Of a stretch of 64,000 nucleotides of DNA, positions 5,261 through 11,526 are shown piece by piece. Position numbers and translations under genes: made by a program. Position 1 is the first letter of the stretch, and the number at the start of each line of letters is the position of its first letter. The stretch comes from Candidatus Nanosyncoccus sp. (GTDB lineage Bacteria > Patescibacteriota > Saccharimonadia > Saccharimonadales > Saccharimonadaceae): NCBI GenBank assembly GCA_045546095.1, contig JAZQCE010000010.1, positions 5,712 to 69,711 of the forward strand, read 5' to 3'. The notes below the pieces were generated by a model. That model searched no databases. It saw only the letters and a list, made by a program, of their open reading frames with translations, and was not told where the DNA came from.

Positions 5261-6241
5261 TTATTCTATGTTTTCTGGTTTTATATTTGAATTAATTAAC
5301 GTATTCAAATGCTCGCTATGCAACACATCTGCATTATAAATCTCCACTTTTGCGTTATATGTTTCAATTAATCCATTTATTTCATTATACAAAGCCTCTA
5401 AAGATTCTTGCCTAGCCACCAGTTCAGCCCTCTGTCCATTAAAATCTTCCTCTGTCTGGAAGCATCCTGCCACATCCGCGCAACTATTAAAACTCACAAT
5501 ATCAGCATTCAGCTGCCCCGCGAGCAGCTCATACTGAGACGTTTTTTGCTCCACCTCATTGCTAATGCTTTCAAGCTCTAGCGCCAAGGCATCCAGCTCA
5601 GCCTGCAACCGATTAAATACTCCAATATATTTATCGTAATAAGCCACCACTTTATCCTGCTCTCTAAAAATCTCCGCATAGTGTCGCTCCAAGGCCTCAG
5701 GCAAATCAGCTATTTCTGTACCCGCCCGCACGTACAACTCTTCCTTTTTCTCATTATCGTCATAAATATCCAACTCTTCACCCAACGCCGTCTGATGTTC
5801 CACCAATACCTCATTTAAAGCCGTCTCCAGCACCTGTCGCGCACCATCATCCATCCGCGCCCACGCTACATGCAACAGCTCATGCGCAGTAGTCAGCTCT
5901 CGTATCCCATCCAGCTCCTCTGAATCTATATTATACACATAGATGCTCTCCCCATCATAGCACCCCAGCACCGCAGTCTCGGTCACACCATCTCTACAAT
6001 TAGCATTAAACTCCTCCCTCTCGCTGAGTACCGGCTGCGATGCGTTAAACAAAAACACACCCTTATCCGTCAAGTTTAGTTCGCCCCTTATCCTCTCCAT
6101 CTCCGCCGACGGCTGATAGGTCACCCCCCGATAATAATCATAAATCCAATCCCTGTTCGCCGCCACCACGGCTCCACCCACAACCAGTACCGCAATTACT
6201 ACCCACCAAATCCATTTTTTACTCGATCTCCTTCTTTCCAT
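5261..6241 (-). CDS. Membrane-anchored protein with HELLH zincin-like motif and C-terminal coiled coil
   Basis: N-terminal TM, AHELLH motif, heptad-rich C-terminus; TATAAT 6 nt before ATG. Confidence 0.75.
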   Translation of the reverse strand: MERRRSSKKWIWWVVIAVLVVGGAVVAANRDWIYDYYRGVTYQPSAEMERIRGELNLTDKGVFLFNASQPVLSEREEFNANCRDGVTETAVLGCYDGESIYVYNIDSEELDGIRELTTAHELLHVAWARMDDGARQVLETALNEVLVEHQTALGEELDIYDDNEKKEELYVRAGTEIADLPEALERHYAEIFREQDKVVAYYDKYIGVFNRLQAELDALALELESISNEVEQKTSQYELLAGQLNADIVSFNSCADVAGCFQTEEDFNGQRAELVARQESLEALYNEINGLIETYNAKVEIYNADVLHSEHLNTLINSNIKPENIE

Positions 6242-6269
6242 ACCTCCATTATACCAAACTCCCCCATCA

Positions 6270-6320
6270 ATTCTAATTATCCAAATAGTTAAAAAGGCAT
6301 TTCATGAATTATATGAGTAA
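6270..6320 (+). pseudogene. Very short C-terminal remnant of a second PemK-like toxin
   Basis: QIVKKAFHELYE* (6282-6320) parallels YKEIRDAYLKLI* at 1294 and is followed by the same convergent RNA/promoter unit. Confidence 0.4.
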
Positions 6321-6373
6321 AAATGTACCCCCGACTTTTCAGAAGGGGGGATTGCGAGTAACCTCGAATATAT
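6316..6373 (-). ncRNA. Putative two-hairpin small RNA (copy 2)
   Basis: Follows a perfect TTGACA-N17-TATAAT; hairpins CGAG/CTCG (6355-6366) and CCCCC/GGGGG (6328-6350); compensatory change relative to copy 1. Confidence 0.55.
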
Positions 6374-6378
6374 TTCAT

Positions 6379-6407
6379 ATTATATCAAGTAGCAAGCATT
6401 TTGTCAA
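6379..6407 (-). promoter_or_regulatory. Consensus sigma70 promoter TTGACA-N17-TATAAT
   Basis: -35 at 6407-6402, -10 at 6384-6379. Confidence 0.8.
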
Positions 6408-6417
6408 TAGAAAGGAT

Positions 6418-6526
6418 AGGTTGGTTATGAATTTAAAGATAAGAATCTTGAATTTCTAAACCAACCTGTTTCCTTAATCCCGTTCACTATTAAAATCTAT
6501 CTCCCGGAACCAAAATAGAAAACATA
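6418..6526 (+). repeat. Cassette boundary repeat R1 (ychF 5' end copy plus element end; palindromic att-like site)
   Basis: AGGTTGGTTATGAATTTAAAGATaaGAATC matches the ychF start (10402-10431); the whole ~110 bp aligns with 8092-8200; inverted arms AGGTTGGTT / AACCAACCT at 6418-6467. Confidence 0.85.
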
Positions 6527-6566
6527 ACGATTTTTATTGCCAAAACAAATGATTTATAATGGTTTC

Positions 6567-6956
6567 ATGTCAAAACCAAGTTATTCAGTTATAGTCCCAA
6601 AAGAGCTTTACCCAAAACCATCAAATCGAGAAATGACTGCTGCCTATATTTTGATTGATTTCTTTAATTCCGATATAAAATTCGTAATCAGAAGCGATAA
6701 TAAAACGCCAGATTTTTTAATTGATAATAAATACTGGGAATTAAAATCTCCTACGGGTAATGGTAAATATAATTTACAGCATGCACTCAGAAATGCTGCT
6801 AAGCAATCAGAAAACGTTATTATTGATGCTAGATTTTCAAAAATTCATATCAATAAAATAAAAAATGAGCTGAATTACCAATTCAAGCACTCTAAAAATA
6901 TAAAGCATCTGCTTTTAATTGATAAGCAGAAAAATGTAGTTGAAATTTCTAGATGA
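6567..6956 (+). CDS. Small PD-(D/E)XK nuclease resembling the tRNA nuclease CdiA C-terminal domain; candidate toxin
   Basis: KTPDFLIDNKYWELKSPTG...LRNAAKQSENVIIDARF motif; ATG 6567 is 6 nt after TATAAT. Family assignment is from recall and needs an HMM check. Confidence 0.75.
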   Translation: MSKPSYSVIVPKELYPKPSNREMTAAYILIDFFNSDIKFVIRSDNKTPDFLIDNKYWELKSPTGNGKYNLQHALRNAAKQSENVIIDARFSKIHINKIKNELNYQFKHSKNIKHLLLIDKQKNVVEISR

Positions 6957-6968
6957 GTACGATATAAT
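6940..6968 (+). promoter_or_regulatory. sigma70 promoter TTGAAA-N17-TATAAT overlapping the nuclease stop codon
   Basis: -35 at 6940-6945 inside the last codons, -10 at 6963-6968. Confidence 0.75.
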
Positions 6969-6974
6969 AAAGAT

Positions 6975-7029
6975 ATCGAAAGTCCGTCAGGCAACGCTGG
7001 ATTGCGTAGGTTCGGGGCTTTCTTTTTTG
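6975..7029 (+). ncRNA. Putative small hairpin RNA (candidate antitoxin)
   Basis: Stem GAAAGTCCG (6978-6986) / CGGGGCTTTC (7013-7022), inner GCAA/TTGC stem, T-run terminator 7023-7028, own promoter. Confidence 0.55.
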
Positions 7030-7044
7030 TGCTATAATGCAACT

Positions 7045-8061
7045 ATGAAGCAGGCTGAAACCACCGATTATTTCAAAATTTTAAGTCCAGATTCTCCAGA
7101 TTGGCTCAAAGATTATATTAATACTAAAGAACTCCAAACCCAAAAATATATCAGTACTACCTGTGGCACACTTTATACCGATTTATTTAGTAGCGATACC
7201 TTTTATTCCAGCTTGGACCACTCCATTGCGGTTGCACTAATTGTCTGGCATTTTACTCACAATAAAAAACAAACTCTTGCTGGGTTGTTTCATGACATTT
7301 CAACTCCTGCCTTCAAACACTGCGTAGATTTTATGAACGGAGATTATCTAAAACAGGAATCTACAGAAGACTTAACTACCGATTTTATTAAAAAATCTCA
7401 GGATGTAATGGATTTACTTAGAGAAGATGATATCAAAATTGCAGAAATCGACAATTATCATATCTATCCAATCGCCGACAACGACACACCAAAATTATCG
7501 GCAGATAGGCTAGAGTATTCATTATCCAATGCGTTATTCACCTATAAAATGTTAGATTTAGAAGAAATTAGAGAGATATACAACGATATAGAAATCGAGC
7601 GAAACGAATCAGGAGAGTCAGAGCTAGGATTCAAAACTAAATCCATCGCTAGAAAGTTTGTCCAAGTTACTAGCAAAATGTCAGTTATCTACCGCGATGA
7701 TAGAACTAGATTCTCCATGCAATTTATTGCAGATATATTAAAAGGGCTAAAAGAAGGCGGTGAAATAACAATAGAAGAATTATACGATAAAAAAGAATCC
7801 GATGTTATTGAGATAATTGAAAAATCAAAATACAAAGATGCCTGGAACATCTGGAAAAAAGCTAAGAAAATCAATATTTCAAAAACTAAACCCGAGGATG
7901 CTTACTATATTCATCAAAAATCCAAAGTACGATATATCGACCCACTTTGTAACGGTGAACGTATGTCTAAAATTTGCAAAATAGCCAAAAATGCCATAGA
8001 CAAAAACCTTTCCTACGATATGAGTAACTATGTCTATCTAGATTTTAAACTCGAAAAATGA
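7045..8061 (+). CDS. HD-domain phosphohydrolase
   Basis: SSLDHSIAVAL...LAGLFHDISTPAFKHCVD...LSADRLEY motifs; start moved to ATG 7045 after TGCTATAAT. Confidence 0.9.
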   Translation: MKQAETTDYFKILSPDSPDWLKDYINTKELQTQKYISTTCGTLYTDLFSSDTFYSSLDHSIAVALIVWHFTHNKKQTLAGLFHDISTPAFKHCVDFMNGDYLKQESTEDLTTDFIKKSQDVMDLLREDDIKIAEIDNYHIYPIADNDTPKLSADRLEYSLSNALFTYKMLDLEEIREIYNDIEIERNESGESELGFKTKSIARKFVQVTSKMSVIYRDDRTRFSMQFIADILKGLKEGGEITIEELYDKKESDVIEIIEKSKYKDAWNIWKKAKKINISKTKPEDAYYIHQKSKVRYIDPLCNGERMSKICKIAKNAIDKNLSYDMSNYVYLDFKLEK

Positions 8062-8076
8062 TATAATCATATCTAT

Positions 8077-8200
8077 AATAACAGATATCACAGGTTGGTT
8101 ATGAATTTAAAGATCGGAATCTTGAATTTTTAAACCAACCCATTTCTTTTATCCCGTTTTCCACAAAAATCCGCCTGCCAAAGCCAAATTGGAAAAACAT
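8077..8200 (+). repeat. Cassette boundary repeat R2
   Basis: 8077-8121 nearly identical to 10388-10431 (1-nt indel); 8092-8200 aligns with R1; palindrome GGTTGGTT...AACCAACC at 8093-8140. Confidence 0.9.
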
Positions 8201-8211
8201 CCATATTAGAA

Positions 8212-8257
8212 CAAAAAGATAGGACTCACCTATTCCGAGGCAAGTCCTATCTTAATA
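8212..8257 (-). ncRNA. Putative small hairpin RNA downstream of the deleted nuclease
   Basis: Perfect 11-bp stem AAGATAGGACT (8216-8226) / AGTCCTATCTT (8243-8253), T-run on the minus strand, own promoter. Confidence 0.55.
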
Positions 8258-8262
8258 ATCTA

Positions 8263-8291
8263 ATTATACCAAAACTACTTCTTAAAATCAA
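8263..8291 (-). promoter_or_regulatory. sigma70 promoter TTGATT-N17-TATAAT overlapping the stop of the deleted nuclease
   Basis: -35 at 8291-8286, -10 at 8268-8263; same register relative to the stop codon as 6940-6968. Confidence 0.7.
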
Positions 8292-8403
8292 CTATTTTCT
8301 TAGTTTTTGTCACAATCTTTAACCTTTCGGTAAATAACAGAATCGTCTTATATTCGTGTTTCTCTAAAATAACACCATTTGGGATAATTTTACCTTTTTT
8401 CAT
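8275..8403 (-). pseudogene. Internally deleted paralog of the CdiA_C-like nuclease (42 aa)
   Basis: MKKGKIIPNGVILEKHEYKTILLFTE|RLKIVTKTKKIVDFKK*: the N- and C-terminal parts align by eye with the two ends of the 6567-6956 protein; the catalytic PD..ELK core is absent. Confidence 0.6.
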
Positions 8404-8590
8404 GCGAGGCATTATAACTAATCCACTCTACTTTTTCAACCCCCCTACCCACAATATGATCTAATGCAAACATCGAAACTTTTGCGGGACACAGTATGTA
8501 GCGAGCGCGAGGACCGAATATTTACATTTTTATTTTTTAATGTATAATAAGTATGAAAAGTATAACCAGTTATACTTTAAGGAAGCGTGC

Positions 8591-8791
8591 ATGAAAAATA
8601 AATTTGTAGGTATAGCCAAAGTTGGTGAAAAAGGACAAATTGTTATTCCAAAAGAAGCAAGAGAAATGTTTGATATTAAATCTGGTGATTCTATCATCGT
8701 TCTTTGTGATAAACAAAAAGGAATTGCTTTATTGAAAGCAGATGCAATTGAAGATTTATCGGATAAAGTATTTCCTAAGGAAGAAAGATAA
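8591..8791 (+). CDS. AbrB/MazE/SpoVT-family DNA-binding protein
   Basis: AKVGEKGQIVIPKEAREMFDIKSGD signature; start moved to ATG 8591. Confidence 0.9.
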   Translation: MKNKFVGIAKVGEKGQIVIPKEAREMFDIKSGDSIIVLCDKQKGIALLKADAIEDLSDKVFPKEER

Positions 8792-9513
8792 TGATAGCAA
8801 TAGAAACAAAAAATTTAACCAAAAAGTTTAAAGACAAAACAGCAGTAAATGGGGTCGATTTGAGCATCAAACAAGGAGAGCTATTTGCACTATTAGGAAC
8901 AAATGGCGCCGGTAAAACTACAATAATAAAAATTTTATCAGGATTGATATTACCAACATCTGGGAATATTAAAATTGAAAACATGGATATGAAAAAAGAT
9001 GTATTTAAGATAAAAGAAATCTTAAATGTATCACCACAAGAAACTGCTATTGCACCAAATTTAACAGTAAAAGAAAATTTAGAATTTATGGCAGGAGTTT
9101 ATCAAATAAAAGATAAAGAAAGAAAGATTAATGAACTTGTTAAGGAGTTTAAGCTTGATGAAGTTTTAAATAAAAGAGCTAAAACTTTGTCAGGCGGATG
9201 GCAAAGAAAAGTATCAATAGCAATTAGTTTAATAAATGATCCTAAAATACTATTTTTAGATGAACCAACATTAGGATTAGATGTTATTGCTAGAAAAAGG
9301 TTATGGAAAGTGATTGAAGGATTAAAAGGTAAAATTACTATTATTTTAACTACTCATTACATGGAAGAAGCAGAAAGCTTATCTGATAGAATTGGTATCA
9401 TGGCAAAGGGCAACATCGTTGAAGTTGGAACCGCTAAAGAATTAATTAAGAAGACTAAAGCAAAAAACTTTGAAGATGCATTTGTAGCAATCGCAACTGA
9501 AGGTGAGCTATAG
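8791..9513 (+). CDS. ABC transporter ATP-binding protein (ABC-2 type)
   Basis: Walker A GTNGAGKTT, LSGG signature, Walker B ILFLDEPT, TTHYMEE. Confidence 0.95.
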   Translation: MIAIETKNLTKKFKDKTAVNGVDLSIKQGELFALLGTNGAGKTTIIKILSGLILPTSGNIKIENMDMKKDVFKIKEILNVSPQETAIAPNLTVKENLEFMAGVYQIKDKERKINELVKEFKLDEVLNKRAKTLSGGWQRKVSIAISLINDPKILFLDEPTLGLDVIARKRLWKVIEGLKGKITIILTTHYMEEAESLSDRIGIMAKGNIVEVGTAKELIKKTKAKNFEDAFVAIATEGEL

Positions 9514-10244
9514 TGAGAATGTTAAATTTCGCCAAGAGAAACTTTAAAGAATTAATAAGAGATCCTTTAAGTTTAATATTTGAAATCGCTTTGCCATTAT
9601 TTTTATTATTTATATTTCAACAATTTGATATACCAGCAGAAAACTACAAATTAGAAAATTTTACTCCAGGAATTATAGTATTTGGTTTTTCATTTATAAC
9701 TTTATTTACTGCTACTTTAATTGCAAAAGACAGAACATCATCATTTTTAATTAGATTAGGTACATCGCCAATGAAGTCGAGCGATTATATTTTAGGATAC
9801 ATAATATCACTAATTCCAATCATAATAATCCAAAATGTATTATTCTTTTCACTAGCAGTTATTTTGGGACTAAACTTTACTATAAACATATTTTTTACAA
9901 TTATCGTATCTATAATAGTTTCAATATTATTTATTTCATTAGGTATATTAATTGGAAGTTTAGTCAGTGAAAAAGGAACTGGTGGGTTAGGAAGTGTAAT
10001 AGTTCAATTAGTATGTTTTACAAGCGGTATGTATTTTCCAAATGATAAAATTGGAGATGTATTTGGTTTTATATGCAGAATCTTACCATTTGAAAGTTGT
10101 TTAAATATAATAAAAAGTGTATTAAACAATAATCTAAATGCAATATCACTGGAAAATATAATAGTATTTTTAATATATACGATTGGAATTTTGATTTTAT
10201 CAATTATTGTATTCAAAAAGAGAATGATAAGTGACAATAAGTGA
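9513..10244 (+). CDS. ABC-2 type transporter permease
   Basis: Six hydrophobic segments, FTSGMYFP motif, translationally coupled to the ATPase. Confidence 0.9.
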   Translation: MRMLNFAKRNFKELIRDPLSLIFEIALPLFLLFIFQQFDIPAENYKLENFTPGIIVFGFSFITLFTATLIAKDRTSSFLIRLGTSPMKSSDYILGYIISLIPIIIIQNVLFFSLAVILGLNFTINIFFTIIVSIIVSILFISLGILIGSLVSEKGTGGLGSVIVQLVCFTSGMYFPNDKIGDVFGFICRILPFESCLNIIKSVLNNNLNAISLENIIVFLIYTIGILILSIIVFKKRMISDNK

Positions 10245-10387
10245 TTGGAAAGTTTTTCAAAGTATTCTCGAATAATCAAACCAACTCCATCATAACAAAC
10301 TGAACAAATACCCCACCCGCAGTTTGCCTTGCACAAACTTTATCATATCTAATGTTATACACCAAAATATGCTATAATTATACCAGC

Positions 10388-10431
10388 AATAACAGATATA
10401 CAGGTTGGTTATGAATTTAAAGATCGGAATC
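10388..10431 (+). repeat. Cassette boundary repeat R3 (the functional ychF start)
   Basis: AATAACAGATATACAGGTTGGTTATGAATTTAAAGATCGGAATC; diverges from R1/R2 right after GAATC. Confidence 0.9.
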
Positions 10432-11526
10432 GTTGGGTTGCCCAATGTCGGCAAATCCACATTGTTTAATGCTCTCACAAACGCTGGCGCCCTCGCTGCC
10501 AACTATCCTTTTGCTACCATCGAGCCAAACGTCGGCATTGTCCCGGTACCAGATGAGCGGCTAGACATCCTCGCCAAAATGTACGAGACCGACAAAATCG
10601 TCCCAGCTACTGTCGAGTTCGTCGACATTGCTGGCCTCGTCGCAGGCGCCTCAAAAGGCGAGGGGCTCGGCAATAAATTCCTTGCCCACATCCGTGAATG
10701 CCAAGCTATCTGCCATGTGGTCCGCGCCTTCAAAAACGACGACATCCTCCGTGCCGACCAAAAACTCGTCGATGATATTGTAGCGCAAGCCAAGGACGAC
10801 ATAGACATCATTAACTTAGAGCTACAGCTCGCCGACGAAGAAACCAAAGCCAAAATCGCCGCCAAACGCAAAAAAGACCCTGGGGACGAATTCATCCCCT
10901 ACCTCACCGACAAGCCCGTCATCTATATGTTCAATGTAGACGAAAAAGGCCTCACCGACAATGACCTACAACAAAAACTAACAGAAGTCGCAAGAAATGC
11001 GCAGTCGAGGGACATAAAGGCAATACTTGCCGAAGGCAATTTTGCCGCCGAAGGGGCGAAGCGAGGTGATAAAATTTCTAATTTATCACCTCGCGAAGCT
11101 CCCGAGACGTGCATTTCTTGCGACTCAAACTGTATTTTTGTTGATGCCAAACTCGAAGAGGAGATGTCCGGCATGGACCGCAATGAGCGCAAAGAGTTCT
11201 TGGAGAGTTACGGGGTAAAAGAAGATGCACTCGGCGAATTAATCAAGGCCGCCTATGACGTCCTCGGTCTCCAATCCTTCCTCACCGCCGGCAAGAAAGA
11301 ATGCCGCGCCTGGACCATCAAAAAAGGCTCTACAGCACCCCAAGCCGCCGGTACTATCCATACCGATTTTGAACGCGGTTTCATCGCTGCAAATGTCTGT
11401 AAATACGCCGACTTAGCAAGACTCGGCTCCGAGAAAGCCGTCCGCGAGGCCGGCCTCCTCCGCACCGAGGGCAAGACTTACGTCATGCAAGACGGCGACG
11501 TTGTCGAATTCCGTTTCAACGTATAA
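10411..11526 (+). CDS. ychF: Redox-regulated ATPase YchF (with in-frame hairpin insertion)
   Basis: GIVGLPNVGKST, NYPFATIEPN, FVDIAGLV, TGS domain IHTDFERGFI, YVMQDGD. Confidence 0.97.
   Translation: MNLKIGIVGLPNVGKSTLFNALTNAGALAANYPFATIEPNVGIVPVPDERLDILAKMYETDKIVPATVEFVDIAGLVAGASKGEGLGNKFLAHIRECQAICHVVRAFKNDDILRADQKLVDDIVAQAKDDIDIINLELQLADEETKAKIAAKRKKDPGDEFIPYLTDKPVIYMFNVDEKGLTDNDLQQKLTEVARNAQSRDIKAILAEGNFAAEGAKRGDKISNLSPREAPETCISCDSNCIFVDAKLEEEMSGMDRNERKEFLESYGVKEDALGELIKAAYDVLGLQSFLTAGKKECRAWTIKKGSTAPQAAGTIHTDFERGFIAANVCKYADLARLGSEKAVREAGLLRTEGKTYVMQDGDVVEFRFNV
10986..11125. repeat. Hairpin element family C, copy in ychF
   Basis: Arms AGTCGCAAGAAATGC / GCATTTCTTGCGACT; core TCGAGGGACATAAAGGCAA...GCCGAAGGGGCGAAGC shared with 36082 and 40266. 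Confidence 0.85.

Follow-up and report, generated by a model that had tools for sequence, protein, structure and literature searches.

A deletion remnant of a CdiA_C nuclease gene that keeps its predicted promoters and hairpin RNA in a Candidatus Nanosyncoccus genome

The stretch of DNA analysed here (the window) comprises 64,000 nucleotides (nt) of contig JAZQCE010000010.1 from Candidatus Nanosyncoccus sp., a genome of 832 kb in 27 contigs that is 98% complete and whose relatives are metagenome-assembled genomes (MAGs) of Candidatus Saccharibacteria / Ca. Nanosyncoccus from the guts of sheep, goat, buffalo and deer. The element in question lies at 8212-8439 on the minus strand of the window and consists of a short open reading frame (ORF), which derives from a stand-alone nuclease gene of the family PF18451 (CdiA_C, PD-(D/E)xK), a predicted promoter ahead of it, and a second predicted promoter embedded at its end, from which a small hairpin RNA would be made. 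An earlier note on this DNA had compared the element with an intact nuclease gene at 6567-6956. The features, with their positions in the window, are the following.

8411 to 8439, minus strand: the remnant's own predicted promoter, TTGAAA-17-TATAAT, an 11/12 match.
8275 to 8403, minus strand: the remnant ORF, 42 codons in frame, MKKGKIIPNGVILEKHEYKTILLFTE-R-LKIVTKTKKIVDFKK, with the TAG at 8277-8275; nuclease residues 1-26 joined to residues 112-126.
8324 to 8325, minus strand: the deletion junction, GAAA/GGTT, 252 nt (84 codons) short relative to intact orthologs.
8263 to 8291, minus strand: the embedded predicted promoter, TTGATT-17-TATAAT, a 10/12 match with a TGn extended -10 and the stop codon within the spacer.
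8212 to 8256, minus strand: the predicted small RNA of ~45 nt, with a 16-bp hairpin at 8253-8216, the apex CUCGGAAUAG and a T-run at 8217-8213.
8080 to 8196, no strand given: the cassette-end repeat R2, a copy of the ychF start region, which the remnant module adjoins.
6567 to 6956, plus strand: an intact nuclease paralog from another PF18451 lineage (E 2.9e-18 to the family), the comparator of the earlier note.
6940 to 7026, plus strand: the comparator's embedded promoter (6940-6968, TTGAAA-17-TATAAT, 11/12) and its hairpin RNA of another class (~6975-7026).

Judged from its sequence, 8403-8275 is what remains of a stand-alone PF18451 nuclease gene, 42 codons that stay in frame across the deletion, and 42 amino acids (aa) is the sensible length of its product because the start of a 45-aa version (8412) falls inside the -10 box. 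The ORF is present as the earlier note described it, ending in TAG, and the two promoter strings quoted there are found at 8291-8263 and 6940-6968. The note had also taken the joined N- and C-termini to match the two ends of the 6567 protein, and the ORF to be a second copy of that gene. The part of this claim that stands is membership of a common family, since both halves match intact relatives within PF18451, to which the 6567 protein belongs; the match to that protein itself could not be reproduced, as BLASTP returns none, a MAFFT alignment gives 17% identity, and the remnant comes from another nuclease lineage that is ~33% identical to the 6567 lineage at the protein level. A search with the two halves, which had been proposed as a check, recovered full-length relatives in the genomes G025, G160 and G168 and on contig C22 of the same genome. 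Against the G025 ortholog, which itself matches PF18451 at E 1.8e-12 and 47.7 bits (cut-off 26.6), the N-terminus of the remnant agrees at 25/26 residues (E 1e-16) and the C-terminus at 15/15 (E 3e-7), and both ends also match the C22 paralog (E 6e-11 and 0.005).

In nucleotide sequence, both halves of the remnant are 90-97% identical to the intact genes of G160 and G168, in which they lie 252 nt apart, and the alignment places the deletion at the unique junction 8325/8324. In the fusion codon AGG (R), the first letter comes from ATG (M27) and the last two from TGG (W111). Ortholog residues 27-111 are covered by the deletion, including the near-invariant D, E-x-K and Q-S, which bears out the earlier statement that the catalytic core is gone; the catalytic E/D/ExK/QS residues are kept at >=90% (at least 90%) in the intact relatives, and the remnant retains the N-terminal HE motif alone among them, together with the last beta-strand. 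The remnant has no match in Pfam and so falls below the gathering score of PF18451, yet its halves align at 96% and 100% to an ortholog that is a member, which is why it is regarded as a derivative of a member and not as a member. A microhomology-mediated deletion via ATGG was considered and rejected, as the breakpoint is unique and is flanked only by the imperfect 7-nt pair GAAATGG...GAAGTGG, whose offset is 251 and not 252 nt.

The intact members of the family are ORFs of 126-147 aa that stand alone. The family matches chain A of the Protein Data Bank (PDB) entry 4G6V in a profile search (4G6V_A, E 2.7e-6), whereas a single-sequence search of the PDB gave no match and 4G6V was found by the profile search only. 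An AlphaFold2 (AF2) model of an intact ortholog (predicted local distance difference test, pLDDT, 82.8) has 4g6v_A as its top Foldseek match (E 3.3e-6, TM 0.64/0.61). More distant phage relatives occur as C-terminal toxin domains of MuF/minor-capsid proteins. In a review table, PF18451 domains are listed as tRNases (PMC9990079). The present genome holds four intact PF18451 genes (6567-6956 and others on contigs C22, C15 and C24) in addition to the remnant, and the genus contains many more relatives than these four. Within the nuclease-family census, which covers 70 non-redundant genes from ~35 genomes, no conserved flanking protein gene was found at the 70 loci; the largest cluster of neighbours (18/70) is a large multicopy surface protein that is unrelated. 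A conserved protein antidote was ruled out, there being no constant protein neighbour among the 70 loci. PADLOC gave no match, and a description of the module was not found in a literature search that covered few subscription journals.

The promoter of the remnant at 8439-8411 has its -10 box ending 7 nt ahead of the ATG, for which reason the remnant mRNA is probably leaderless, and the GGGGTTGAA...TATAAT layout is found ahead of all intact paralogs and orthologs. In all five family copies of the genome (8403, 6567, C22, C15 and C24) the distance from the -10 box to the ATG is 6-7 nt and a Shine-Dalgarno sequence is missing, an arrangement that implies leaderless mRNAs; all five are also preceded by a conserved -35 context, GGGGGTTGAA. 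From the embedded promoter, we infer an RNA start at A8256, 7 nt after the -10 box.

The hairpin of this predicted RNA (8253-8216) is a perfect 16-bp stem, and not the 11-bp stem of the earlier note; the ~45-nt RNA has a predicted minimum free energy (MFE) of -23.4 kcal/mol, with z -7.05 against shuffles. Likewise, the TAGGT to which the earlier note drew attention in both RNA loops is a coincidence, lying here partly in the 3' stem strand and reading TAGGC or TAGAT in relatives. When the hairpins of this class are aligned (21 genomes), 98.8% of the cells are paired and four pairs covary, and the invariant parts are the 10-nt apex CUCGGAAUAG and stem pair 14-29, a U.G wobble. Relative to G160, G168 and G025 the hairpin carries 0/38 substitutions and its flanks differ by 5-25%. 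This comparative pattern argues that the structure of the predicted hairpin RNA is under selection. An Rfam scan of 5500-9500 at E<=1 gave no meaningful match.

Next to the remnant promoter, the segment 8466-8525 (plus strand), behind a weak promoter at 8433-8460, resembles another hairpin class (GAAG...CAGUAUG...GCGAGGAC), with eroded stems and a fold that is not superior to that of shuffled sequences (z +0.48). It has the look of an orphan RNA in decay, standing back-to-back with the remnant promoter; in G155, G224, G160 and G168 the orphan RNA at the same position is intact and belongs to the 6975-7026 class.

The earlier note had further argued that the embedded promoter is a family trait, and this is upheld by the census. 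A sigma-70-like promoter of >=9/12 (at least nine of twelve matches) occurs at -45..+25 of the stop codon in 61/70 family genes, as opposed to 162/1475 (11%) of the background ORFs, taken from this genome (n=1475; Fisher p 5e-45), and at >=10/12 (at least ten) the counts are 43/70 and 42/1475 (Fisher p 2e-41); a second set of 36 loci has the architecture in 35/36. The -35 boxes are phased to the codons, at -20 (23 genes), -14 (17) and -11 (10); a hydrophobic residue followed by an acidic one encodes their TTGA, as xTT-GAx. The -10 box follows or spans the stop codon; where the -35 box is at -20, the TG of an extended -10 comes from a TGA stop. Next come a hairpin of 40-55 nt, in which an asymmetric internal loop typically separates the outer stem from the inner one, and a T-run; nearly all of the 70 relatives have the hairpin. 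Most of the nine genes that lack a >=9/12 site have a promoter that is weaker or placed slightly farther downstream, or else their RNA is encoded on the other strand. A strict scan of the 832 kb for a promoter, a hairpin and a T-run in succession returned only six units, four of which are CdiA_C modules, that of the remnant included, which speaks against a chance arrangement. RNA similarity follows nuclease identity (Mantel r 0.48, 0/2000 permutations). On these comparisons, the predicted embedded promoter together with its hairpin is a trait of the family.

In several relatives (among L042, L034, L045, L025, L016, L043, L029 and G150/L083) extra hairpin-RNA genes, each with its own -10 box, lie in tandem past the first terminator. 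Others point towards the module or away from it (L016, G150), and two tandem repeat units are found in L043 and L029. The extra hairpin RNAs of the relatives make up small arrays of nuclease-free RNA genes.

Across 369 genomes of the genus, in which the genome of the 8275-8403 remnant is designated G000, the hairpin class of the remnant has 22 copies, one per genome. In 12 genomes an intact nuclease lies directly upstream of the hairpin, in G263 (L111) the start codon is out of frame in an A-run (A8), possibly by an assembly error, and in G095 and G340 the hairpin is fused behind the RNA of another module. The remaining 7/22 hairpins are without a working nuclease and show seven different lesions: the 252-nt in-frame deletion in G000; a different internal deletion in G224, out of frame and with a 30-aa product; the loss of the 5' half of the gene in G181; a gene reduced to its last 8 codons, beside a transposase-like remnant, in G196; a frameshift with a 3' deletion in G251; and, in G150 and G167, a gene that is wholly untraceable with an RNA that is 100% and 97% identical, respectively. 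The 56 nt of RNA are identical between the orphans of G150 and G000, with adjacent DNA at ~81-87% identity, and two orphans have the promoters TTGCGA-17-TATAAT (G167, with a new -35 box) and TTGTCA-17-TATAAT (G094).

A similar picture is given by the class of the neighbouring module (6975-7026), which has 23 hairpins. About 10 of these have an intact nuclease; the other situations comprise one premature stop, one frameshift, three truncated genes, five free-standing orphans and two hairpins in tandem behind other modules. As 2/23 hairpins lie at contig ends and were not judged, ~11/21 are without an intact nuclease. The loss of the toxin core with retention of the RNA, proposed in the earlier note for this one locus, thus recurs independently in both classes. 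Further likely pseudogenes that keep their RNA (G188/L156, G337/L166, L023 and G263/L111) show a CAG turned into TAG nine codons short of the end, a frameshift, an in-frame TAG and a start put out of frame by the A8 run.

The reverse, a nuclease without an RNA, is almost absent among the 70 genes, with one clear exception, L069 (G023:C2:44782-46594). This gene lies in DNA of higher GC content, is not followed by a promoter and hairpin, and carries HE->HG, PD->PL and WExK->WALK, so that it appears to be an inactivated, RNA-free paralog. Such one-sided decay fits a toxin-antidote pair because loss of the antidote first is lethal and loss of the toxin first is harmless.

The explanation that fits best, held with a probability of roughly 0.6, is that 8212-8439 represents what is left, toxin dead and antidote alive, of a protein-toxin/RNA-antitoxin module that is common among the ruminant-gut Saccharibacteria of this genus (Ca. 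Nanosyncoccus and relatives). The intact module would pair a stand-alone PD-(D/E)xK CdiA_C nuclease of ~126 aa, whose closest studied relative is a tRNase toxin, with a hairpin RNA of ~45 nt, which would be made at the 3' end of the nuclease mRNA and separately from the strong promoter in the last codons. Because read-through and the embedded promoter would both yield RNA, the RNA should always exceed the protein. The RNA may bind its cognate nuclease and block its activity, either as a pseudo-substrate like that of type III systems or as an inhibitor; direct binding of this kind is suggested by the lack of an antisense signal together with the co-divergence of the RNA with the protein, and the one-sided decay supports it indirectly. 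A type I antisense mechanism was examined and rejected, as RNAduplex energies for cognate and non-cognate pairs were -17.5 vs -17.0 kcal/mol (5' 60 nt) and -27.4 vs -27.5 kcal/mol (coding sequence), and the median rank of the cognate pair was 23.5-27 of 54, that is, no complementarity specific to cognate pairs was detected.

At the present locus, a single 252-nt in-frame deletion would have removed the catalytic core, and both promoters and the RNA would remain because loss of the toxin first is the only order of decay that can be survived. As for an orphan antitoxin, the hairpin is identical to that of the intact orthologs, both promoters are intact, and the genome, 98% complete as it is, has no intact nuclease of the matching class: its four PF18451 genes carry hairpins of other classes, and the hairpin of this class occurs once. 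The RNA is for this reason termed an orphan, and it may still guard against incoming modules of the same class. Cross-neutralisation of the 6567 nuclease, suggested in the earlier note as an experiment, seems unlikely because the RNA of this locus cannot be aligned with that of the 6567 module, and the proteins are as far apart as given above. A more far-reaching and rather doubtful proposal is that orphan hairpins are selectively kept as RNA immunity genes, forming libraries of ~45-nt antidotes, often in cassette arrays (e.g. at the ychF start), against PD-(D/E)xK nucleases that arrive from mobile cassettes, phages and neighbours. If true, this would be the RNA counterpart of orphan-immunity islands, on a class of toxin/RNA-antitoxin module undescribed in the literature searched.

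It has to be noted that several points weigh against the toxin-antidote explanation of the locus. The cognate nuclease could be hidden in the missing part of the genome, and the compared genomes are MAGs throughout. The hairpin of a terminator would covary too. The N-terminal part of the remnant has 1/79 substitutions relative to G160 and G168, and because the lineage with the deletion is this close to the intact orthologs, the intact RNA at this locus could reflect recency and not selection; the 252-nt deletion could also be a strain variant or an assembly artefact. Finally, L115 (CAMVEA010000038.1), a nuclease 98% identical to the G025 ortholog, has its last codons, promoter and RNA replaced near a contig end, and is either a rare intact nuclease without an RNA or an assembly break. 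Domestication, by which is meant that the orphan RNA is selected for, and a recent decay that the cell can survive are indistinguishable at this one locus. The genus-wide sequence comparison favours some selection on orphans, e.g. those of G150 and G167 and those that keep or regain a promoter.

Among the other explanations, the one that survives best, although improbable, makes the RNA the primary element, being a regulatory small RNA (sRNA) or an RNA processed or used by the nuclease, with the nuclease a dispensable accessory and the orphans working alone. It would account for the third to half of the hairpins that are nuclease-free and for the near absence of RNA-free nucleases, for the -10 boxes that orphan hairpins retain and the arrays in which they occur, and for the 10 invariant apical nt. 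It is harder to reconcile with the nearest characterised relative of the nuclease, a growth-inhibiting tRNase that requires an immunity protein, given that no protein partner is found here; moreover, the RNA classes diverge with the nucleases instead of being conserved for a common cellular target, and the one clear RNA-less nuclease, L069, is catalytically dead.

Somewhat less probable again is a plain decaying pseudogene, in which the hairpin is an intrinsic terminator, the promoter hexamers are by-products of the C-terminal codons, and nothing is functional. The TTGA of the -35 box is indeed encoded by the conserved hydrophobic-acidic pair, a T-run does follow the hairpin, and the deletion looks recent. 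Coding constraint leaves the -10 box unexplained, however, since this lies after or across the stop codon, at a 16-18-nt spacing in 61/70 genes, and a plain terminator needs neither the invariant apex nor the wobble pair. Orphans that have no gene left keep or regain promoters (G167, G094), second, third or convergent RNAs have a -10 box of their own past the first terminator, and the identity of the G150 and G000 RNAs contrasts with the divergence of the DNA around them.

It is very unlikely that the hairpin works as DNA, serving the mobile cassettes at the ychF start as an end structure or a site of recombination, comparable to an integron attC, and is kept for mobility. The module adjoins the cassette-end repeat R2, a motif TTCCAWTTTGG... 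follows many modules in other genomes, and the hairpins of most classes are imperfect, all of which would suit such a role; against it, the DNA downstream of many modules and orphans is unrelated (e.g. G167, G251), every hairpin is preceded by a consensus promoter and followed by a T-run, and the hairpin class follows the nuclease lineage and not the cassette end. The least probable alternative, that the 42-aa fusion peptide is itself the selected product (e.g. as a dominant negative against related nucleases) and the RNA is incidental, draws on the in-frame deletion, the intact strong leaderless promoter and the fact that the C-terminal part differs from the orthologs by synonymous changes only, but such changes are expected after a recent deletion, the reading frame is kept by chance in one case in three, and probably was here, given that the deletion that arose independently in G224 shifts the frame, and five other lesions yield no comparable peptide.

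The intact relatives share their domain family and fold with CdiA-CT(II) of Burkholderia pseudomallei 1026b (PDB 4G6V), and the PD-(D/E)xK acidic residues are common to both; the remnant 8403-8275 itself is without the core of the domain. In the CdiA/CdiI system the toxin is fused to a delivery region and is accompanied by an immunity gene, whereas here the domain stands alone (~126-140 aa), has no delivery region, is probably translated from a leaderless mRNA and would be cytoplasmic, and the constant partner is a small RNA only, a CdiI-like neighbour being absent.

With the type III systems (ToxIN, CptIN, TenpIN) the module shares a nuclease toxin, an adjacent structured RNA on the same strand that is not antisense, and the co-divergence of cognate RNA and protein, and in both a terminator sets the stoichiometry. 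It differs from them in the toxin, which is ToxN/AbiQ-like there and PD-(D/E)xK here, in the RNA, which is a tandem-repeat array there and a single hairpin here (two tandem units occurring only in the rare L043 and L029), and in the order, with the RNA upstream behind a shared promoter there and downstream here, with a promoter of its own in the last codons of the toxin.

Another family of comparisons is offered by the 3'-UTR sRNAs DapZ and MicL, whose promoter lies in the upstream coding region, which share the terminator of the mRNA and which act in trans by Hfq-dependent base pairing. The promoter in the 3' coding end and the shared terminator are found here likewise, but in the present family the class of the RNA varies with the nuclease beside it, and the comparison with the cognate mRNA showed no antisense signal. 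Antidotes kept after loss of the toxin are known from orphan cdiI and rhsI genes and from chromosomal as opposed to plasmid ccd, and are often arranged in arrays in variable, cassette-like regions. Such a retained antidote and such arrays are matched here, with the difference that the putative antidote is an RNA of ~45 nt and not a protein.

The surroundings of the module are themselves composite. The start of ychF (AGGTTGGTTATGAATTTAAAGATNNGAATC) is present three times, at 6385-6530 (R1), 8060-8205 (R2) and 10370-10500 (R3); R1 and R2 have a further ~80 bp in common, and R2 and R3 the upstream promoter region. Between these repeats lie two cassettes of low GC content (6418-8092 and 8093-10410), both inserted at the 5' terminus of ychF, and in G025 and G160 a ~1-kb cassette at the same site carries the intact nuclease-RNA module only. 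The other cargo consists of a 338-aa protein with a weak HD-domain match (7045-8061, plus strand) and, at 8591-10244 (plus strand), a small protein of the AbrB/MazE fold (PF04014) overlapping an ABC-transporter ATPase, plus a permease. In the region 6270-6407 (minus strand), which the earlier note had linked to a PemK-like remnant, a perfect TTGACA-17-TATAAT at 6407-6379 is followed by a terminator-like hairpin at 6345-6328, and this may be another promoter-driven small RNA beside a toxin gene.

The locus is a degenerate member of its family, and its value is in anchoring a pattern that recurs independently across the genus; no comparative argument so far speaks more strongly than this pattern for the hairpin as the antidote of a nuclease toxin of a new, RNA-controlled kind. 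The disarmed copy serves as evidence from a natural experiment, in that, over hundreds of genomes of uncultivated bacteria, the loss of nucleases with the RNA kept, and almost never the reverse, is the genetic signature of an antidote. If the toxin-antidote explanation is true, a nuclease domain of polymorphic toxins that is usually restrained by a protein would here be controlled by a 45-nt RNA whose promoter lies in the last codons of the toxin, and the module would differ from the three known type III families in each of four respects: the fold of the toxin, its single-hairpin RNA, the order of the genes and where the promoter is placed. This would also bear on how ultra-small symbionts with genomes of 0.8 Mb can afford several addiction or defence modules, since the antidote and its promoter together take up ~80 bp.

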